From Sphagnum compactum (taxonomy: Eukaryota), in contig OZ234494.1 of assembly GCA_965153455.1 (NCBI GenBank), positions 4,960,001-5,024,000 of the forward strand: 64,000 bases of DNA, given 5' to 3'. Positions 5,602-60,091 of the stretch are shown piece by piece (the stretch's first letter is position 1; every line of letters starts with the position of its first letter). The position numbers were made by a program, and so were the translations under genes. The notes under the pieces are model-generated. The model was not told the origin of the DNA, searched no databases, and saw nothing but the letters and a program-made list of their open reading frames with translations.

Positions 5602-7381
5602 TTAGTCACAGTCAGAGAGAAATGATTTGCCAGCTTCATAAGTGGACCAGCAAATGGCAGCAGCTGGTGTGTGGAAGAGAACACGAGGTCGAAGCCCACG
5701 CAGCAGTGCTGAAAGCCCTTCCTCTGCTACTATTCTACGCACAGCATCTACAACTGAGCAGCTCATGAACCGCTGTGCCCCTGACACCCCCTGCCACTCC
5801 CTCACCAAGGTTCAAAACCCCTTCAGCCCTTCCATCCAATCCAAAAGCAGGTACAAAATGAAACTGAAAACACATGCATCAAGTAAGCATTTGGATACCA
5901 GTGGAGCTCTTAATCATAGATATGGTTCCTTCAGAGCTTCACATTGCTCCAATTTCACACAATTGAAGAAAATTTCTCTCTCTCTCCCTCTCTCTCTCTG
6001 TCTCAAAGTTTCCATTCAGTTAGTGATTTGGTTCTTGACGAAAATTGCAATAGAATTGCAACTTGCAACGACTTGGAAAATAGTCAGGCTTGACGTTCAC
6101 CTACTCGAAGGACAAACTCCTTTGACAATGAAAACTGCAAATTTCCTGATCTGGCGGTTCTATCAGGCATACTGATTTCACGCTTTGTGCACTTTCTTGT
6201 CCATGACTGATAAGTAAGAAATTCATAATGTCAATCAACTGTTGTTTACATTGCAGTGGCAAGGGCACTGCGATGTAAACAGAGCTTGTAACAATGCTCT
6301 TGCTTTCCTTCCCTCACCAGAAGGCTGATCTGAAGAGCTGAAATTACTGAGAGAGAGAGTTTTTTCAGCCAAGAAATTGCCCCGTAAAAGTCCTTTGGAT
6401 AGGATCCACCGGGACGGTGTACCTGGCACTGAAGGCGGGTCTTAACAACGTCCAGAGGCGTGGTCACAGCGCTAGCGAGTGCTCCTGCAGCACCACCTGC
6501 AGTCACGTGCACCAGTAAGTGCTCCTCGTCCACTTTGTCTGGCGATACCTCCATCAGCAGCTGGCATCACAAATGCGTTGTGCACAAGTGAGAGGAGAAT
6601 GATTGGAAAAGCATCCTTGCTGCTGGTGATTCAAACACTTACACAATCCCTCCTTAGAAAAGTAAAACTAAAGACTTGCAGCGTGAGGAATGGAATGGAA
6701 ATCTACCTTTTTTGCAGCTTCATAGGATGCAAAATGTACAGCTGTGAAGGGAACATTCATGATGACAGTAGTAGGGTACGAAGTATAGAAAGCTCCAAAT
6801 CCTTCTACTCGAAGCATAGTCGCGATGCAATGCGTCAAACCCCTGTAGGGAGTGTGCTTCAGCTGTAATCTTTGCTTCACAACGTCCATGGGAGTGAAAA
6901 CGGCATCACTGGCCACTGTTGCCAGCGCTCCTGCAGCCCCGTGTGCCAGAGGATGGTATCCTTTTTCATTCCCGCCCAACTTCTGCTTGCAAACTTCGTA
7001 CACGGAGAAGTAAACAGCATGGGCAGGTCCAGCTCCTAGACCCATTGCTCCAATCCCTCGGTACAGTCCCACAGCCCCCTCTGATTTGACGATGGAAACC
7101 AGAGCCCTAGAGACTGTTGAGTGACGAGAACCACCAGCACTTGCTAACATCTGCATTCGTGTTTTCAGCGTATCAACGGGGAACATTGCCATGTGTTCCA
7201 CCATTCCGGCGACAGAACCAGCAAGCATGTAGTGGCCAAATTTAAGTCCATCGTGTAGCTCATTCTCTTTTGCTTGAGTGACGCTCTCACGCTTAGGAAA
7301 ACTGGTCAGGTCTGCCTCATGGGCATAGCTTAACGGTGACAACCGATGCCTTTCTCGCAGATCAGACGCTGTCTCAGCCAT
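5602..7381 (-). CDS. Mitoferrin-like mitochondrial iron carrier (SLC25/MRS3-4 family), 3 exons, ~333 aa
   Basis: Exons 7381-6707, 6560-6423, 5790-5602 with GT-AG phase-0 introns. Three carrier signatures (FPVDTLKTRMQ, TPMDVVKQRLQ, TPLDVVKTRLQ) and the mitoferrin-type motifs GAGPAHAVYF and MNVPFTAVHF. Confidence 0.92.
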
Positions 7382-9448
7382 GCGCTATGCCACAGAAATT
7401 AAGTCTCTTGACTTTACCACCACCTCCACCTCTCTTACCGGGTTACACTTGTTTCCAACGGGATAGCTCTAGAAGGAGCTTCTGGAGCAGAATCAAACGT
7501 CTACGTGCTCCTTGAAGGCTAAACACGCTGAATTGCATGCAAGATTGAGGTAACTTCTGATCCTGTCCACAATTCCAATTGGTTCCAATTTCAGTACTGG
7601 AAAAAAAATCTCATACAATGCATCTCTGCACTAGGTGCGATTGAGTAGAATACAGTCACAGATGTTCCTGATCTCCATTCTCAATTGGGACAGATGCAAA
7701 CATCCTCCTGCTCTCTTCCCGTTCAGCTCTTTCTGCAGCCTCCTTCTTTGCTTCTGTTACTAGTGATTAAGTCCAGATCTATATTCTTGTTCTATTCATG
7801 GAGGAAAAGCCCCAAAATCCAATAACTAGTGTAGAGCTCAAAGCTTTTACAAAACTTAGTTGCTGATGAGATCAGTACAAGATCCCCATAATAGCCTGTG
7901 AATTGACACTCTGCAAAGCTAACATCGGATCCGACAAACCAGGAAGGAGTACCTATTGGAGACAGAGCAGAAGATATATACACGAAATGACTCTCTCCGC
8001 GAGTTCTTTGCATTATAGACAAACACAATGTTATTTTGCTTACTTGTGCAGTGACGCAGGCGGACGGGTGCAGACGAAGAGGGAGTACAAAGAATCAACC
8101 TCCCTATAAAAAAGTGCAACGTTCTACTTCAAATTGGCTGGCCCTATAGCAAATCAGGTAAGTAAGAATTATTGCTTTTCATTTCACAACCTCCTTTTTT
8201 TTTTTTTTTTCTCCTTTGCAAATGGCATCATCATCAGCACTTTTATTCACAATCATCCACAAGAGTAGGGATCCCTGGGGCACCGTGTTACATCTTCCTA
8301 AATAGTATCTATCTGCCTTTTGTGGCTAAGATATTAATCAACCCTTTGCCATCTGCCTTTAGTAGGTAACATTACCAAACTCAATTGTATTGAAATCAAT
8401 CACACTTGGCCAGAGTCATCCATCCAACACCCGCCAGTTCACCACAAAGGATGGATGGTCTGTGGACAGGAAATTGGTTTCTCATTGCATTAATGTCCCA
8501 TAACTAACCACGGTGTATGAACAGCCATGTATGAACCATCCACATGCATCTACATACCTAGTAGCAACCCAATAAAACTTATGGTTTTTAGTTTTTACCA
8601 TGGTGCCAGTGTAGGTGATGGTAGATTATCCACAACTGAGATAAAACACTCACACAGTTGCCATTTTAATGAGCAAAGCTTATATTTGTTGAAAACTACA
8701 ATGAGGACACTTCTTCTCCCTTGTTGTTTCACCTTCACCCAAATGGCTAGTGAAGGCAAAATCTTATTTCGGATGTAGTAGGTATGCGCATGATCTGGAA
8801 CACTAGTGGATGTTCATCTTCAGGATTCTTTTGGAGGCTTAAAATTTATTATTGGAGGGACAAAAGCTTTGTGGCCTCAAGTTAAAGATAACAGATGCAT
8901 GATACCAAGCTTCACCTATTTATCATTGTTTTAAGATGAGGGGGGCTTTCCATTCCATATGAAAAACACATAGGTATGTGTGCACTGACTGGGTCAGATC
9001 CCCAAAACGACTTTCTTTTGTTATTAAGTGAACAGTTGAAGTCTTTGGTACGCAACTTCTTGAGTGGGTGAATGAAGGAAGCTCATGGGAGCTTTATTTG
9101 TGATTGGGTGCATCTAGAATAAAATGTATGTGTCCTTCAGGTTTCAAACTCTCAAAATCATTAGTTACTCTTACAAACCCTAGACACCTATAGTGTTATA
9201 TAGTTACTATGTGTGATTTTTTGTGCATATCACTACTTCTTTTATGTTGTCTTGCCAAAGGAACTTGACTTCAGCAATCTTTTTCAATTCCCTGACAGGA
9301 CTAGATTTGTGTGGTTGTATTATCTCTTTTCATGTATAGATGATTTGTGTGATTTTCAGACTACCTGACAAAGATTGCAAAATTGTGAAATGTTATTCAA
9401 CTGAATAATTGCAAAAGGCAGATTTGTATTTACTAAGTAGGTCAAGAG

Positions 9449-29337: not shown

Positions 29338-29681
29338 ATAAATCCAAGGAGGTATATAAGCAAGTAAGGCACTTGCATGGTGGCTACTAGGCAGGTAGAT
29401 ACTAGATACATGTGGATGGATGGGTTAGTAGTTAGTACATTAGGTAACTAGCGTTGTTAGCTATGGGAACACAAATACAACGAAAGAGTGTTTTCCTGTC
29501 CGCATATATCATCCATCCAGGGCATGGTGCCCTGGTAAGTGTTGGCTCACTCTCGCGAGGGGAGGGGGAGAGAGAGAGAGAGAAAGAGAGCGTGCGGGAG
29601 CGATAGAGTGGAGGACGTTTTGTTTAGGTTTTGGTCTGGTGTTGTGCAGTGGCAGCTGGTGTGAGGAGGAGGAGGAGAAGC

Positions 29682-31238
29682 ATGAGCGGAAGAAGTAGTA
29701 GCTGCAGGCCCGCGATGACCATGATGACGATGTTGATGCCAGCAGCCATGAATCGAGTCTTGTGGACTCTTACGTTGCTCCTGATCATGTCACTGGTTAC
29801 CCAGAACCTGGTGGCTCCTTTCACCTTCGTGCTTGCCCAAGAGTTCGAAGGTTTCCTGGAGGATATGGGTGACGGAGAAGATGCAGAGATGGAGTCTCCT
29901 CCGTTTCCCATTCCAGTGGTACGCTCGCAACATCAGGAGCCGTCTTCTCGCACCGCCGCCTCCACCTCCTCCTCCTCCTCTTCCTCCTCGCGTAACCCTA
30001 ACCCTGATGCGGGAGCAGCAGCAGCAGCAGCAGCCGCGGCGGCGGCTACAGGGTCGGTGAGAAGCGGGAAAAGAAACGAAGCCGAGAATCGAAAGGGCAT
30101 GGATCCGCACGAGTTTTGGGACGAGGATGAATTCGAGGGTTTGCCTGTGGAGCTCGGAGAGAAGGAGTCGCCCTCCTCACCCTCCCCGCCATCATCTTCT
30201 GCTGTGCAAGATGAGAGAATCGGCAGCAAACAGAACAAGATAAGCTCCAAGTCTTATGTTTTGAAGCCTCCGCAGAACTACTACATGGAAGGTGCATGTG
30301 TGGTGTTTCTTGTGATTTACGGAACCGTTTACTGGTTAGGGAAGAAGGAGAATGAAAGGATTGCTCTTGCTTGGGCTTCGCAGTTTGTGAAAAAGGACAG
30401 TATCTTTGAAAAGAATTTCAGTTTGTTGGGAACCGGAGACGGTCCTGATGATCCTCTGTTAGTGAAAGAGGGACAGAATGTGTTCAAGTTTTATGCAAGC
30501 GGAAGAAGGTACTGTGAAGGACTTCTTGCCACCATGGAATTTCAAGCCCGCCATGACCTACTTTCTAGAGCTTGGTATTTGGTGTCTCCTGGCAAGGATG
30601 AATTGAACATTGATGTGTATATGAATGATGAGAACATGGAGCCTATTGTTTTTGCTCTCACTAGGCGGAAACAAGGCAAGGAGATGCTCAAGGAATGCAA
30701 GGATCTTCAACAGTTTGCCAGTATGTTGTCTCCCCCGACAGGGCCCAGGAAATGGGTTGCAGAAGAATTGGTTGTTATCAGTGAATCAAGGGAGATTGCG
30801 GTAGATCTTCTCACAGATGGATTGCTTGAGCAAGTCTTTGGCAAGAAAGCTTTTCAAACTATTGCACCATACTTTGTTTCACTTCATTTCTCTGACCAGC
30901 AAGCAGTGGGATTGCACAAGAAATTGCTGCAGTTCAAGTTTCTGATTCCTCCAGCAGAGAGGATGGCAGACATGGCTCGTCTAATCTCAATAGTCCCTTA
31001 CTTTATAGATGCAATTGGAAGATATAAGCTTAGTGCGCCTGCTCGGACCAAGGCCTCTGGTGTGCGAGCGAAACTTGACCAAGAGAATGCAAAGGAATTG
31101 GCAAAAGCTCGCCAAGAAGCTTTACAGAAGAAGAAGATGGAGAGGGAAACACAGTTGTCCAGCAAGCAAGAAGAGAAAGAACGCCTTCGACAGCTGAAAA
31201 AGTCCATGCCAAAGGTGAAGATGTCAAGGGGACACTAG
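29682..31238 (+). CDS. CCDC47: CCDC47/DUF1682-family ER membrane protein (PAT complex subunit), intronless, ~518 aa
   Basis: Uninterrupted ORF with N-terminal hydrophobic signal, acidic WDEDEFEG, TM segment ..YWLGKKENERIALAWA.., FKFYASGRRYC, and a basic coiled-coil tail ending MPKVKMSRGH. First in-frame ATG is 29682; a later ATG may be the true start. Confidence 0.88.
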   Translation: MSGRSSSCRPAMTMMTMLMPAAMNRVLWTLTLLLIMSLVTQNLVAPFTFVLAQEFEGFLEDMGDGEDAEMESPPFPIPVVRSQHQEPSSRTAASTSSSSSSSSRNPNPDAGAAAAAAAAAAATGSVRSGKRNEAENRKGMDPHEFWDEDEFEGLPVELGEKESPSSPSPPSSSAVQDERIGSKQNKISSKSYVLKPPQNYYMEGACVVFLVIYGTVYWLGKKENERIALAWASQFVKKDSIFEKNFSLLGTGDGPDDPLLVKEGQNVFKFYASGRRYCEGLLATMEFQARHDLLSRAWYLVSPGKDELNIDVYMNDENMEPIVFALTRRKQGKEMLKECKDLQQFASMLSPPTGPRKWVAEELVVISESREIAVDLLTDGLLEQVFGKKAFQTIAPYFVSLHFSDQQAVGLHKKLLQFKFLIPPAERMADMARLISIVPYFIDAIGRYKLSAPARTKASGVRAKLDQENAKELAKARQEALQKKKMERETQLSSKQEEKERLRQLKKSMPKVKMSRGH

Positions 31239-41290: not shown

Positions 41291-42589
41291 TATGGTCATC
41301 ATCAAATCATTGTAGATTTTATGTGTTGCATCAAATACAAAGCTTAATATCCTACCCATATTTAATGTTCCCAAGAGGAAATATGATTTGCTTGGTATGC
41401 AATATATGAACATTAGTTGTCCATTGGATCCCATCTTTTCACTCCTTGAATCCAATTCAACTTGTGCCATTGATGAAGCATTTACTACCAATTGCAAGTG
41501 TTGTTATAACATTTTGAACATTAAGCAATGATTTTTTTGACAATTTTGTGACGTAGTCAAAATGACAATCACCTATGGGAAAATTTAGTCAAATTTGGCC
41601 ATAAACAAGACACAAAAGCAAAAAAAATTTAAGCATACCTTTTTATTTATGGCTACCTAATGGAACCAAATATAAATTTAACAAATTTTAATTTCATTTT
41701 CATTTTTGAAATCTAGCAAGTGAAAATTTAAAACATTATTTCATTTCACATTTTCAATCATTGCTTTAACCATTTGGGGAAAAAAATCATTAACAAAATA
41801 AAAAGGGTAACTCACAGCTAATTACAATTATCCCAAGCTTCAAATTACGATTGATTCCCATATTGCCATTTTGGTAGTTCATAATGCAACTCCAATGGTT
41901 CATTGTATTAGGGATAATATGAGTAAATAGCATATCAAATTCTACTATTAAAAGATAGCCCCTCCCCAATATATGGAACAACATGCAATGCAGGAGCATA
42001 CGAATGCCACACTTGGGCCAATCATTGTGGTTAGCCAACCAAAGGTAGTCATTTAATTTTCCAATGTCAAAAGACACCCATGATATTATGTGCATTTTGA
42101 CGAGGCCTAAACCCATTTTCAATATCATGTGGGGTGGTTGACTTCATCTAATATTTGGATTGCAAGATAAATATAATAAATTGTTGGAGCTACTCTTACA
42201 TGGCAAAGTACAAGCAACATGGGCAAAAACTAAACTATAACAACAAATTTAATGCAATTTTGTCTAGGATGCAAAAATATGAACACCCATTGACAATGCA
42301 TACATAGTAGGGAATTAATTTTCAAATAATTTTTCTTGTCCCCTAGAGTCATGATGGTTATGGGAACTATGGCTTGGAGATTAACATTTATAAAAAAATT
42401 GGTGTGACCCAATGTTTGGACCAGTGTTGTGCATGTAAGTGTCAATAGACGTATATATGGCGTGTAAATCTCGTGTAAGTGTTAATCATTTACACTTACA
42501 TGTCCAAATGTTTTACACTTATCCTGTTGCAGTGGAGATCATGAGTTCAAAAAATTTTATTGTCTCCATCTAAGAAGTTAGTCATTCTT

Positions 42590-43210
42590 GGAAAATGTTT
42601 TCTCCTAGGACAAATGTGTTGAACTCCCATCCCTTTAGGATTGTGCTTGTGAGTGAAATGGTTAGTGTTTGTTGAGGAACTTTTGTTGTGTCTTCCTTGT
42701 GAAAATGCAATCATGTTCTTGGGGGGAAGAGTGAGTGTGTTGTTTGAGGAATATGGTTTTGTTCCTTGAGGAAATTTTTTCCTGGGGACAAATGTGTTGA
42801 TTGTTGTGCTAACCAAGGAAATAGTTGTGTTCCATGGTGAATATGGTTTGTGTGTTCCTTAAGGAAATGCAACTAACTCTATTCTTGAGAAAGTGTTTTG
42901 TGTTCCTCAAAGAACATGGTTTGTGTTCCCCAAAGAAATGCCTTTGTTTGGGATAAATTTTGGTTCAACTAGGGTTATTTTTCTTTGAAGAAATGGTTGT
43001 ATTCTTTGAATTGTGTTGTGTTCTTTAAAGAGATGCAATTATGTTCTTAAGAGAATACTTGTGTTCCCCAAGGAAAATGTTTGTGTTCCCCAAGGAAATG
43101 CTTTTTCTTGGGACAAATTTGAGTTCAGCTGGGGTTGTTTTTTTTTGTTTTTTGGAGGAAATGGTTGTGTGCCCTCATAAATGCAACCATGTTCCAAAGA
43201 AAGAAAATGC
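42590..43210. repeat. Degenerate short-unit array (TGTGTTCC.CAAGGAAAT motif) downstream of the CAGTGTTG terminus at 42422
   Basis: Many diverged copies of GTTCCY.AAGGAAAT, with a higher-order duplication near 42920 and 43082. Confidence 0.6.
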
Positions 43211-43586
43211 TTGTGTCTAAATATTTCCCTTTAAAATTTGTACCTAAGGTCCTTGGGAAAGGCTCATCCCAATTTCACTTTTCCCATGAAACTTGTCCCA
43301 AGCCTCTTAATTTTGAAAATAATTAATTAATTAATTTTTAAAAATAAATAAATAATTAATTTTTAAAAATTAATAATTAATTAATTTTTAAAAATAAATA
43401 ATTAATTAATTTTGTTCCCTAGGCAACTAAGTCTGTGATCCCAATTTCCCATCTCCTTTGGAAACTGGACCCAAACCTTTTTTTGTTTCCTTCCCTCCTT
43501 AAGCCAATTTGATGAAGGAAGTGAACCAAGTTGCAGAGAGAAAGCATCCCAAGAGCCACCACCCTCTTCCCGGCCACACCTAACGT

Positions 43587-43841
43587 CTATACCACCTGGT
43601 GTGTGTCAGGCCCCTCATCTAAGGACCGCTCACTGCCCTTTACCCTGGGGCCCTTAAACTGCCAGGTGTCTTTGTTTTCATCTCGGGACCAGTCACCACC
43701 CCTATCCCCTGCGCCCCTATACCGCCTCATGTCAGTCTCTTCTTCTAAGGGAACCGGTCACCACCCTTATCCCTGGGTCCATATACTGCCTGGTGTCGGT
43801 CTCATCGTCTAAGGAGTGGTCAACGACCCTATCGTCGGCCC
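43587..43841. repeat. Four diverged ~63-bp GC-rich tandem units just upstream of the NMT1/THI5-like gene
   Basis: Consensus-like TATACTGCCTGGTGTC..CATCTAAGGACCGGTCACCACCCTTATCCCTGGG.CC, four copies. Confidence 0.75.
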
Positions 43842-44019
43842 TTTCCAAAGTGTAGGGCCTGTTGAGGTGCAGGGGGAAGCCGTGTTGTTGTGAGAGAGAA
43901 GGAGAAGTTGCTGGCAAGGAAGATCGAGTAGCGGGAGGAGCAGCCGTGGTGGTGGTGGTGGTGGTGGTGGTGCGGGACGGAATTGAGAGAAGAGCTTGTT
44001 GGGTTACAAGACTTGGAGA

Positions 44020-46359
44020 ATGGCAACAACAGCAGTGAGCGTAGCGTTGGACTGGACACCCAACACCAACCACGTTGGTTTCTACATCGCCCAAGCTCGA
44101 GGCATTTACGCGCAGCATGGGCTTTCTGTGAGTATCATTAGTCCCCATTCCGACAATTACTCGCAAACTCCAGCGTCCAAAGTTGCGTCCAAAACTGCAA
44201 GTAAAATGCTCCTCCTCCTCCTCTTCCTCCTCATTGCCCTTTACTGAATTTCACTAGTATAGGTGATTGATAGCAAACTTTGGGATCCTTCCCATCTGGG
44301 TGCTTCCCGAGCTCACTTGGGGTGGATGTCAGCAAAATCCCTCCTACCCACTCATGACCAAAATCTGAGACTCTGAGATCAGTTTGAAGAAATGAGCAAA
44401 ATGCTTGTGGGTGCATGCTGGGTAAACCCTAAATCCATCACAATTGTCTGCAACTCACATAGTTTGGAGTTTTCGGCTACGTTGAAATTAGTCAACGTTG
44501 CAGGGCAGGTCTTCAACAAGAAATCTTAATTTTTGGGAGTCGTCACAAAGTATTCCTGAAATTCGTGTGGAACATCTTTGTCTCCATCTTGAAACTGCCT
44601 GTGTTTCAGGATCTTCCTCTCTAGAACCAACCAACTCATGGTTTCCAATCTTCCTTGGATGTGGTCTTTGTGTCTCTAGAAATGTGTGTCTGAATCTTGG
44701 CTCGGAATTTCTTCGGGTTTGTGGGTACAGCATTTGGATTGGGACCATCTGAGACCATTTTCAGCTATCACTTGCCACCACAGAGACCAAAGCTGGTAGC
44801 AGTGGCAACAGTTCTCCAGGAAGATCTCAGTTCCATTGGTAATAAGATCAGATCAGATCACCACAACATCATTTTGAGCATATAATTTATGGGTGAATGG
44901 AGTAGTAGTTCTTGAGAGAGAGAGAGAGAGAGAGGTGGGTCTCTGGTCTCATTGCCCAGGCTGAAAAAAATTGTTGAATGTCTTTGTCTCATCAGTGACT
45001 CTTAGGGAGAGTGGCATCGACCGACCTCAAAAGTTAGATGGGAAGAAGTACGCATCATATGGGGCCCGATTTGAAGGTCGTATCGTGCAACAGATGATCC
45101 AACAAGATGGGGGTAAGGGTGATTTTGAAGAGATTGTTCCCGAGAAACTTGGTATTTGGAATACTTTGCTGGAGAAGGTGGCTGATGCTACTTGGATTTT
45201 CAGTGGGTGGGAAGGATGTTCTGCAAGCATTGCTGGCATCCAGCTCAATGAGTTCCGACTCTCCAGCTATGGGTACCATGGCCATTACCCCCTTGTCAAT
45301 GGCAAGGGTAGATGTATCCATTAATTCAGCTTCCCTTATCCCAGTGTAGAGCATGCATGATATCATTTGCTGCAAGGCTATGACATCATGTGATAATAGT
45401 TTTGTTTCCTGTAGGGTTCAGAATAGAGATATCAGTCCACTTTCTTAAGTTCGGGTCTACTCCTCATTGGTTCTGCTGTTACTAGATTGCAAGTTTTAGT
45501 GTCACTGGGAAATACAGAATAGTGATAATAATTCTTTTGTGCTTTCTGTAGCACCCAGGGGATAAATGGGGAAGCTAAGACTGAGAAACAGAAGAATTTT
45601 CCTGAAGATTGACAAACTGGTGGAGATGATGCAGGATACCTTATGGGTACAGCCCAGTTGTATTTTCTCATCCTAGCACCTTGCAGTACGTTCCCCCACC
45701 TTTCCTCTTCAGTTTGCATGTCAGTTTGCATACTGGGAAATATTGCAGAGGTTAACAACACCTTGCAATTCATTGTGTTTGACCTTTTGCATAAATGGCA
45801 GGGAATTCCCAGACGTTGTGAGAAGGTTCCTGAGAGCTACATCTCTAGGATTCATCTGGGCCACAATGGAGGCAACTATCAGTGAGGCAGCAAATTTATT
45901 TCTGGTGAGCTTATCTTTCCACCAGGCATTTTTTGAAGTTTGATCAGCAATTTAGTAAACTCTTGAAACAGAGTATCAAACATGAACATTCTCAATGAAA
46001 AGTTTACTTGCATCTGGCATTTTGCATTGTGGGTAGTGCAGGAACAAGTTTGCAAGGAGCATCCAGATCTGCCCGAAGGCACAGTTCCTGCTGAATTGGT
46101 CCATAGATCACTTGAATTTCTCAAGGATCATTTTTTGGATTCCAAGAGTGCTTGGGGAGTGATGGGAGACCAAAAATGGGAGGAGTATCTGACATGGCTC
46201 AACAAGGAACAGCTTCTCACCTCGTACATCCAATCACGGAACCCTGTTTCTGGTGTCAGCGTCACCCTGGATGACCTGCGGTCTGGTAACACAGGCTCTC
46301 CACTGCCTTCTGACCACATAACTTCCCATGCACTCTACACGAACAAATTTCTCACCTGA
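44020..46359 (+). CDS. NMT1/THI5-family (ThiY-like) solute-binding-fold protein, 6 exons, ~345 aa
   Basis: Exons 44020-44200, 44731-44838, 44996-45272, 45635-45685, 45802-45904, 46042-46359; all GT-AG and phase-consistent (1038 nt). Motifs LDWTPNTNHVGFYIAQARG, SGIDRPQKLDGKKYASYG, DATWIFSGWEG, YGIPYGYSPV, terminal LYTNKFL. Confidence 0.88.
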
Positions 46360-47744
46360 TGTTCATGATTGAACTTTTGATAGAGAATATCCCTATTAGT
46401 CCAAGTTCACCTTGCTGTTTTTTTTCTTCATTGTGAGAATGGAGATTTCTCTAGTCTTATGAAAGATATTTTGATAGAGAATATCCCTATCAGTCCAAGT
46501 TCAAAGACAACATGCCAGCATGTATTTTGTTGGGCTACACAGCCTTATAGCATCATGCTGGATCTTGCATACTACAAGCCCAATCAAGCAAACTCTCTGT
46601 ATAGGTAAGCTTTCATGCCATAGACCTGTTCAATTGGCCTGTCTGTATAGTTTGCTGTCCCTTAGTAGGAGTGGACTTCATACACTTTTGAAAAGACAAA
46701 AGTGGGTATTTTGGAGTGACAGCTCCACTTCGGTAGTAGACAAAGACTGCTGGACAAAGTGGAAATTTTCAGTGTGTCCTGGCTCGAGAGGACCTCTGGT
46801 GCTTTCCTAGTATGTGATCAGTGGCTCTACCCACTCAGTAGCCTGCTAGGATCAACCTCTTATTTCTGTCAAAGAGGTTGGCTAACTCCACTTGGGTCAC
46901 ATGCCAATTGTGGGAACTTTGGTGTCAAACTATACTGTTACTTTCTAAAGCTTTTGTCACACCACTTAAATGACAAATTAAAAGTTCGTCTATAAGGCTT
47001 CTCCAACAAGCTGGAAGCCTGTGACTGCATTCTCTAGTATATTAGACCCAAATTGATGAAGTTTTATTGTTGCATCCTTCATTCTTGTTCATGTTGAAAC
47101 TTCTCATTTCAGTTTGTTATAATTCTCATGCCTAATACGAGTGACAAATATAGGAAGGAAACGTATGAAGGGTATTTAGTTTTCAAAATTCATTTAAAAC
47201 ATATTGGGAAAGGTTGACATATTAATGCCCAGTTGATGTTGTATGACAACTAAATGTTGTTACATGTCTAGTAAAGCAAGGCATCCTATACCATGGAAAA
47301 GTCACAAAGTTTAAGACCTAAAACTTGGACAGACCATGAATTTGAAGAATGAAGTCTATGGTTAAGTTACATCAAGAACATGTTTTGAGTTGAACTTTGG
47401 CAAACCGACTTCTGAAAATAAAGGTGATGGAAATGGATCTTGGGTTGGGTTGTCAGGTCTTTCACTTTGCAACAAAATCTGATTCGAGTCAGAATAGAAG
47501 AAAAAGGCCTGACTGCAGATGTTAAACATCAAATTGTACAGAGTCCTTGGGAGTGGGTGAGATTCTTCACCCTAAGCTTGATTTGTCACAGCACAATGTT
47601 TGCCACATTGCAAATCGTGTGACATCCATGAGACAGTTGAGCTTTTTTTTTAAAATTCATCACACTAGAAATGTTTTTTTTATTCTCGCTATCCCTAAAT
47701 CATGTGAAAATGAATATCACCAAATTGCAGAGAGTGCAATCTTG

Positions 47745-60091
<12,347 letters not shown>

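Follow-up and report, generated by a model that had tools for sequence, protein, structure and literature searches.

What does a spliced plant gene do whose product resembles the substrate-binding proteins (SBPs) with which bacteria import thiamine precursors? The question is raised by a gene at positions 44020..46359 (plus strand) of a 64,000-nucleotide stretch of Sphagnum compactum DNA (assembly GCA_965153455.1, contig OZ234494.1, positions 4,960,001 to 5,024,000), called the window below. Six exons with GT..AG borders throughout join to a coding sequence (CDS) of 1038 nt, encoding 345 amino acids (aa) followed by TGA, and the protein begins MATTAVSVALDWTPNTNH. An initial annotation made from the letters alone had taken it for an anciently acquired, ThiY-like binding protein with a link to vitamin B1. 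Comparison with its relatives in bacteria, archaea and other eukaryotes indicates that the clade of leaderless proteins to which it belongs probably has a general role in vitamin B1 (thiamine) metabolism.

Fold and key residues of the moss protein

An independent database protein of 345 aa, P0001, which derives from JGI/Logan contigs of up to 1761 nt, is 98% identical to the moss product over 341 columns. P0001 matched the Pfam family NMT1/THI5-like (PF09084) with 142.9 bits against a cut-off of 20.5 (E 1.7e-41, residues 15-227), an NCBIfam scan gave a sub-threshold SsuA_fam match and no specific model, and a search of the ESM Atlas confirmed the family and added nothing further. In phmmer searches of Protein Data Bank (PDB) sequences, full-length matches were obtained to 4nmy (E 3.9e-36) and 3ix1 (E 3e-18), whereas the THI5 proteins of yeast and Candida matched at E 6e-7 and weaker, with the match confined to the N-terminal 135 residues. 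A model predicted by AlphaFold2 from 60 homologs, with a mean predicted local distance difference test score (pLDDT) of 95.7, gave the same order in Foldseek: 4nmy_A (template modelling score 0.92 by target), whose title is 'Thiamin-bound form of Substrate-binding Protein', then 3ix1 (E 5e-22), then Thi5, followed by SsuA, TauA, NrtA and the CmpBCD cytoplasmic regulatory domain. DszB, which like Thi5 is an enzyme of this fold, was also among the matches. Both comparisons, of sequences and of the predicted structure, thus support a protein that is ThiY- or SBP-like rather than THI5-like, as the initial annotation had it.

The residues on which THI5 relies are missing, again as first claimed. 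Lys62 of THI5 reportedly binds pyridoxal phosphate and His66, in the segment GLKAMIH, is said to be the substrate; a PDB entry titled 'Thi5 H66G mutant' agrees with these roles. In the HMMER alignment to 4h65 the two residues correspond to Ser67 and Phe71 of the moss protein. No Cys is present in SSYGIPYGYSPVVF, the counterpart of the THI5 CCCxC segment, an equivalence by position in a stretch that HMMER left unaligned. The segments FGLGPSET and YGIPYGYSP, which had been named in place of the two THI5 motifs, were confirmed in the translation. Across 60 family members 24 columns are invariant, none of them Lys or Cys, and the polar invariants of the clade include E68, Y115, S117, Y118, R121 and E123.

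Because the reading frame is closed by a TGA at 43984-43986, 33 nt before the ATG, exon 1 permits no N-terminal extension, and predicted strand 1 begins at residue 4, leaving no space for a leader or transit peptide. The claim that the protein has no N-terminal targeting extension is therefore upheld, and, being leaderless, the protein is most likely cytosolic, as judged from the model.

Prokaryotic relatives and the question of a transporter

Prokaryotic relatives were sought in one genome per species; at least 595 were found, and the best 80 loci (numbered with the prefix L), which share 42-57% identity with the query over their best aligned segment, were analysed. They are from Bacteroidota (56), Halobacteria (10), Chloroflexota (4), Rhodothermota (3), Balneolota (3) and metagenome-assembled genomes (MAGs) labelled Pseudomonadota (3), with one of unassigned phylum; Chloroflexus is among the closest carriers. 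The DW motif lies no more than 13 residues from the longest possible start of the open reading frame (ORF) in 61 of 79 homologs. A further 17 have a Met no more than 13 residues before the motif, with a hydrophobic run upstream in one of these, and one homolog was called from an internal start. As the nearest prokaryotic homologs are leaderless, they are not transporter binding proteins.

Their neighbours point the same way. No permease was found among the 23 annotated neighbour clusters of the 80 loci, and the ATPases of ATP-binding cassette (ABC) type near 10 loci are generic, the one that was scanned against NCBIfam (L007) fitting best an exporter-type DrrA-subfamily model. The motif LDWTPNTNH had been put forward as a mark of ABC binding proteins; that view fails, since the 79 nearest prokaryotic homologs are leaderless and stand outside ThiXYZ-type operons. 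More distant relatives (~35% identity) include the permease fusion P0292, which appears from its sequence to mark the transporter branch. Nor was a ThiX- or ThiZ-type permease or ATPase identified among the ORFs of at least 110 aa in the window, seven of which were Pfam-scanned, in agreement with the statement that the moss gene has no local ABC partners.

Two fusion proteins were noted among the hits. An apparent fusion of NMT1 and PF01910 in P0162, a picoalga-like ORF on a GC-rich contig, was set aside as probable read-through of two neighbouring genes: no second protein joining such parts occurred among the best 150 of 2482 hits, and the PF01910 part recurs N-terminally in proteins with unrelated tails. 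Adjacency of an NMT1-like and a PF01910 thiamine-binding gene would itself be of interest. P0005, which combines NMT1 with an FkbM methyltransferase, is a single gene model.

Thiamine pyrophosphate riboswitches and uptake operons

In 16 of the 80 loci a TonB-dependent receptor gene adjoins the NMT1-like gene on the same strand. Rfam aptamers for thiamine pyrophosphate (TPP) at or above the gathering score lie immediately upstream of the NMT1-like gene in L017, L019 and L020, and another precedes the receptor-gene operon of L079. Sub-threshold matches with a conserved aptamer core were obtained in L070, L053, L025, L034 and L029 (E 1.5e-6 to 0.008). A covariance model, R1, was built from the four gathering-score Bacteroidota aptamers; although it may miss others, it placed TPP elements in 14 of the 80 loci, including all 13 receptor-linked loci with upstream DNA present. 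The R1 score at L038 reached only E 0.28, and three further receptor-linked loci end at a contig edge upstream.

Three loci carry paired TPP aptamers within ~1.1 kb, one before and one after the NMT1-like gene (L017:3393-4543, L019:7799-9023 and L020:7888-9029). The second aptamer precedes the receptor gene in L017 and L019, and the contig of L020 stops shortly past it; the NMT1-like gene and the receptor gene each have their own riboswitch. The Mongoliitalea genome G001 has TPP elements before thiM-thiE, with thiD and tenA directly downstream, before two TonB-dependent receptor genes and before the NMT1-like gene.

A TonB-dependent receptor, a PnuT-like transporter, an AAA_28 protein and the leaderless NMT1-like protein are combined in four Bacteroidota loci (L049:4120-8891, L070:1308-5819, L079:5187-10257 and L020:2524-3732). 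In all four the PnuC/PnuT-family transporter gene is within or beside the operon. The gene for AAA_28, a NadR-like kinase, is next to the riboswitch in L070, L079 and L020, and a 2-oxoglutarate (2OG)-Fe(II) oxygenase gene is in the operon in L049 and beside the NMT1-like gene in L079. These riboswitch-bearing operons may represent a route, so far uncharted, by which a thiamine vitamer is taken up or converted.

Such partners raise the alternative that the clade is a salvage enzyme, which would use the SBP fold as a catalytic scaffold to make a usable product from a compound that is related to thiamine and taken up from outside, be it a pyrimidine vitamer or thiamine that has been damaged or modified. 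The kinase and the oxygenase would suit an enzymatic step, the fold does include the enzymes Thi5 and DszB, and conservation is very high, with many of the 24 invariant columns polar and with clade-specific invariants (S117, Y118, R121, the DGGxG loop and W151) that 4NMY does not have. A Gfo/Idh/MocA oxidoreductase gene directly downstream in 8 loci could be read likewise; it was rejected as a functional signal because it is confined to loci with wider common synteny (GreA, HIT, histidine kinase), those named being Flavobacteriaceae and some others unclassified Bacteroidota. Moreover, the clade has no invariant Cys or Lys, its near-invariant His18 is also found in the non-catalytic 4NMY, the oxygenase is present in two loci only, and carriers that retain only thiamine pyrophosphokinase (TPK), described below, restrict the product to thiamine itself. 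A salvage enzyme is a strong alternative all the same, though considered less likely than a non-catalytic binder.

The neighbourhood of the gene in Halobacteria and Chloroflexus is uninformative. A haloarchaeal neighbour of the aminoimidazole ribonucleotide (AIR)-synthase family, present in 3 loci, was dismissed as a candidate thiL, since it scored below the cut-offs of both HypE and ThiL.

Carrier genomes and thiC

Thiamine biosynthesis genes were searched in genomes with and without the NMT1-like gene, and control genomes gave the expected results in each search. The gene thiC (TIGR00190) was present in 2 of 24 carrier genomes, Fulvivirga G307 and the Rhodothermales MAG G313; in the latter it lies in two abutting pieces covering model positions 1-302 and 300-423 (G313:C4:758920-760276), which points to a frameshift or to misassembly. 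Among 301 sampled Bacteroidia, the class of G003, thiC was found in 0/8 carriers versus 85/293 non-carriers, the thiC-positive non-carrier G093, an unpublished genome, entering this tally only. In a sample of 151 Halobacteria it was found in 0/4 carriers versus 93/147 non-carriers, so that depletion is seen there despite the lack of a riboswitch. One-sided Fisher tests, which ignore relatedness and completeness, gave p values of 0.068 (Bacteroidia), 0.020 (Halobacteria) and 0.010 (combined).

Five carriers were examined further. G001, G002 and G005 keep thiD, thiE and tenA without thiC. Polaribacter G003 and Fibrisoma G004 have none of thiC, thiD, thiE and tenA, and TPK is present in both. Because these two genomes retain TPK only, the usable ligand there must be thiamine itself.

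Could the gene take the place of thiC? The absence of thiC from most carriers, with thiD, thiE and tenA kept in three of them, is what would be expected if the clade were a new, ThiC-independent synthase of hydroxymethylpyrimidine phosphate (HMP-P), a functional analogue of THI5. The fold shared with Thi5 and the automatic UniRef name 'Thiamine pyrimidine synthase' would agree with this, but the substitution of Ser and Phe for K62 and H66, the absence of the Cys motif and a similarity restricted to the N-terminal 135 residues all speak against it, as does the presence of the gene in G003 and G004, which have neither thiD nor thiE to use HMP-P. Few thiC-less genomes in the samples carry the gene (8/216 Bacteroidia and 4/58 Halobacteria). 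In a report on algal PF09084 proteins, functional assignment was withheld and direct HMP-P synthesis judged unlikely (PMC4260697), and in a second report a Phaeodactylum knock-out of an NMT1-domain gene had no phenotype and grew without thiamine, unlike a thiC knock-out (PMC9544697); both of these observations concern the signal-peptide type of protein. On balance an HMP-P synthase appears very improbable.

Distribution and phylogeny

The distribution of the family was read from the best 120 hits for each of two queries, P0001 and the Ginkgo ortholog. These include the mosses Ceratodon (65% identity) and Physcomitrium (63%), a liverwort, Selaginella, ferns, Chlorokybus, many chlorophytes and prasinophytes, and one haptophyte. 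They also include the gymnosperms Ginkgo, Taxus, Araucaria and Cryptomeria, and leaderless orthologs from three chytrids (P0131, P0133 and P0152, of Homolaphlyctis, Polyrhizophydium and Entophlyctis; 43-50% identity to the Ginkgo protein) that are distinct from the fungal THI5 enzymes. Restriction of the family to non-seed plants, as first supposed, can thus no longer be maintained. No named angiosperm occurs among the best 120 rows for either query, many of which are unnamed. With the Ginkgo query, angiosperm orthologs would be expected just under the gymnosperms, and their absence suggests that the family was lost in angiosperms.

A maximum-likelihood tree of 66 rows, from which the chytrid orthologs were left out, was obtained by a quick search; it is unrooted and its support values are from the Shimodaira-Hasegawa-like approximate likelihood-ratio test (SH-aLRT) only. 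All 41 eukaryote rows form one clan (SH-aLRT 100), as do the 12 land-plant rows (99). Branching within these clans matches the species tree, with Ceratodon, Physcomitrium and P0002 together as the sister group of the window sequence. As far as the tree indicates, the gene is old and has been passed on vertically in green algae and in land plants as far as the gymnosperms. Of the description 'anciently acquired', the antiquity stands, given the single clan of 41 eukaryote rows; the direction implied by 'acquired' is not supported, since a tree without a root does not show which way any ancient transfer went.

Proposed function

Riboswitch control, uptake partners and ThiC-less hosts together tie the clade to the acquisition of external vitamin B1. 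These same signals in prokaryotic carriers make the vitamin B1 link of the initial annotation plausible. A leaderless protein that lacks the THI5 residues, and whose carriers include some able to use only intact thiamine, would be neither a transporter binding protein nor an HMP-P synthase. Since the nearest solved relatives bind thiamin and formylaminopyrimidine, and candidate pocket residues are held in common with 4NMY, an intracellular binder is favoured. The protein would bind thiamine, or precursors or breakdown products that bear the aminopyrimidine, inside the cell, and non-catalytic capture of vitamin B1 vitamers is the mechanism that we prefer, though with rather less than even confidence.

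Facilitators of the Pnu type need an intracellular trap. According to the proposed mechanism, a vitamer would cross the membrane, for example by such a facilitator, and would after entry be held by a high-affinity cytoplasmic binder, which might buffer it or pass it to TPK or to ThiD/TenA. In plants that also have THIC, the protein could act as a cytosolic vitamer buffer or as a salvage factor. More broadly, we tentatively suggest, as a possibility short of a probable one, that the clade has an intracellular part, so far unrecognised, in acquiring vitamin B1, and that ThiC-less Bacteroidota, Halobacteria and Chloroflexus have it in common with chytrids and with the entire green lineage as far as the gymnosperms, angiosperms having lost it, whether as a Pnu trap or as a salvage enzyme acting with the co-operonic 2OG oxygenase and kinase.

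Several points weigh against this proposal. Land plants make HMP-P with THIC, so that the need for a salvage factor is unclear, and the ligands of all clade members are so far predicted ones. Identities of 45-57% across bacteria, archaea and plants are more typical of enzymes than of binders. The thiC comparison is small and partly based on MAGs of unknown completeness, and it takes no account of relatedness. Many clade invariants (Y47, T50, S117, Y118, R121, the DGGxG loop, W151, T162, E169 and Y192) are not in 4NMY, so the ligand may differ, for example by carrying a phosphate, or the protein may have a catalytic role. R1 detected no TPP element in 66/80 prokaryotic loci. Nothing local to the moss gene speaks to its function: no TPP aptamer was found for it, Rfam giving no gathering-score match in the 64 kb and, over 42500-47800, nothing even at E <=5, and the genes around it are unrelated. 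For Micromonas, PMC4260697 describes a weak response to thiamine deprivation (at most twofold in CCMP1545) and, in RCC299, expression of the gene below that of other riboswitch genes.

The lack of a riboswitch in the window and in most prokaryotic loci, together with the uninformative context in Halobacteria and Chloroflexus, could mean that the plant protein has a ligand unrelated to vitamin B1, and that the thiamine link is limited to some Bacteroidota and picoalgae; the NMT1/SsuA fold does bind many ligands, including sulfonates, nitrate and pyrroloquinoline quinone (PQQ). However, the motifs that form the pocket hardly vary between bacteria and plants, which favours a single ligand for the whole clade. 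The thiamine pyrimidine is bound by both of the nearest solved relatives, and thiC is depleted in the riboswitch-less Halobacteria also. A ligand outside vitamin B1 metabolism is accordingly judged quite unlikely.

If the broader suggestion is right, non-flowering plants would keep a step of B1 salvage or buffering that is missing from textbook pathways derived from Arabidopsis. Communities of microbes and algae are shaped by the exchange of vitamin B1, and B1 metabolism in plants is a target for engineering; solving the function could add a B1 salvage step and explain the directionality of Pnu-type facilitators. The comparative signals (riboswitches, uptake operons, ThiC absence and apparent angiosperm loss) make the function testable, and Physcomitrium, Chlamydomonas and culturable flavobacteria offer test systems. 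What the moss gene contributes is small: it shows that in land plants the family is spliced, expressed and inherited vertically.

Gene structure and expression in Sphagnum compactum

Public RNA data were aligned over positions 43900-46600. The matching runs are labelled moss or plant metagenomes, and reads of X23, a stranded polyA run, covered the exons on the strand expected of a plus-strand mRNA. The 5' untranslated region (UTR) extends at least over 43982..44019, RNA contigs of X1, X6 and X13 beginning to align at 43982, where the DNA upstream is masked repeat. A (GGT)n run at 43940-43975 lies just 5' of it, and a CT-rich run at 44205-44240 lies at the start of intron 1; both are repeat-masked.

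Exon 1 (44020..44200) runs from Met1 to the first base of codon 61, carries LDWTPNTNH and alone matches NMT1 at E 1.4e-6; X23 depth is full until 44200. The joint over intron 1 (44201..44730, GT..AG), which adjoins a masked repeat and is absent from the read-junction table, is carried by metatranscriptome contig X13 record 7, connecting 44200 to 44731, and by P0001. A minor alternative donor at 44128 gives the joint 44127->44731 (3 reads), whose product is out of frame. Exon 2 (44731..44838) encodes the FGLGPSET segment, which sits where THI5 has GLKAMIH. Intron 2 (44839..44995) is spanned by 24 junction reads of X23 (44838/44996) and by contigs from 3 runs. Exon 3 (44996..45272) encodes the motifs YASYGARFEGRIVQ, DGGKG, LGIWNTLL and ADATWIFSGWEG, and matches NMT1 alone at E 2.2e-13.

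Intron 3 (45273..45634; 9 junction reads, 45272/45635) is partly retained in RNA: X23 depth over it is 8-15 versus ~30 in exons, and a 420-nt contig spanning 45244-45663 with the intron unspliced was found in metatranscriptomes X1, X6 and X13. Retention would truncate the protein after SSYG and 16 further residues. PolyA depth over the remaining four introns is ~3 or less, and near zero for introns 1 and 2. Exon 4 (45635..45685) encodes the IPYGYSP segment, which sits where THI5 has its Cys motif. Intron 4 (45686..45801) has 23 junction reads in the main form (45685/45802), with a minor alternative acceptor at 45813 (7 reads) that shifts the frame; a snoZ185 match within it (21.8 bits against a gathering score of 50, E 0.28) was taken as chance. 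Exon 5 (45802..45904) follows from the gene model and RNA reads. Intron 5 (45905..46041) has 22 junction reads in the main form (45904/46042) and a minor acceptor 5 nt upstream that starts exon 6 at 46037 (3 reads). Exon 6 (46042..46359) ends the CDS with TGA at 46357-46359 and holds the eukaryote-specific C-terminal extension. The intact six-exon ORF that had been predicted is thus confirmed, with RNA reads or contigs behind all five junctions.

RNA depth runs on to 46600, giving a 3' UTR of at least 46360..46600. Inside it is a short dispersed repeat, bordered by two ~35-bp copies of 'ttgatagagaatatccctat.agtccaagttca', and over 46357-46538 RNA depth rises into the thousands, with many differing loose ends at ~46420 and ~46469.

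This is a normal nuclear gene of the moss, and it is expressed; its five spliced introns and its land-plant topology rule out recent bacterial contamination as well as a recent transfer. Its neighbours in the window are unrelated to thiamine: a mitochondrial carrier exon (Mito_carr, 6668-7384, minus strand, E 7e-47), a single-exon homolog of CCDC47 of the PAT complex (29628-31238, plus strand, E 3e-68) and fragments of a CHD-type chromatin remodeler identified by Pfam (DUF1087, 47745-51927, minus strand).

Comparison with known systems

The nearest published proteins are those of the algal PF09084 'SSUA/THI5-like' family. TPP riboswitches were described for such genes in Micromonas RCC299 and NEPCC29 and in Aureococcus (McRose et al. 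2014, PMC4260697). Two types were later distinguished, one with a signal peptide in diatoms, haptophytes and cryptophytes and a leaderless one in chlorophytes and prasinophytes, the latter also occurring, with predicted aptamers, in Fistulifera solaris (Llavero-Pasquina et al. 2022, PMC9544697). In the light of these two reports the label 'undescribed' does not hold, leaderless algal genes having been reported in 2014 and 2022. Land-plant members seem to be undiscussed in the literature searched, in which no paper pairing THI5 with Physcomitrella was found. The algal and moss proteins are alike in belonging to PF09084, in being leaderless and ~345 aa long, and in forming one clan that joins the moss with chlorophytes and prasinophytes (SH-aLRT 100). 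They differ in that some of the algal genes have a TPP riboswitch in the UTR and no introns (PMC4260697), whereas the moss gene has five introns and no aptamer. Judged by the present tree and the text of PMC4260697 and PMC9544697, on which the identity of the two clades is based, the moss protein is a land-plant member of an already named family whose function is uncharacterised.

Among characterised structures, 4NMY, the thiamin-bound SBP of an ABC transporter of Clostridium difficile, is the best match in both sequence and fold. Its LDWTPNTNHTG is identical, and it has in common with the moss protein the whole LDWTPNTNHxG motif, E68, Y115, E123, D160, W163, F165 and W168; it differs in being extracellular and part of an ABC importer, and in having no eukaryotic C-terminal extension. 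ThiY of Bacillus halodurans (3IX1), which binds formylaminopyrimidine for the ThiXYZ transporter, has the same fold and aligns over its full length. Unlike the moss protein, it is a secreted protein that has a permease and an ATPase as partners, and no such partners are conserved beside the leaderless prokaryotic homologs. The fungal HMP-P synthase THI5/NMT1 (4H65, 4ESX) is closer in being intracellular, of the same fold and of similar length, but its resemblance ends after the first 135 residues, its K62 and H66 are replaced and its Cys motif is without counterpart in the moss protein.

Two further systems offer analogies for an intracellular binder tied to uptake. The cytoplasmic regulatory domain of CmpC/NrtC (9uai and 9uak among the fold matches) is one, the ligand of CmpC being different. 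The other is provided by the thiamin- and HMP-binding proteins of the YkoF/PF01910 type, which are intracellular binders associated with an uptake system, although the fold of YkoF differs.

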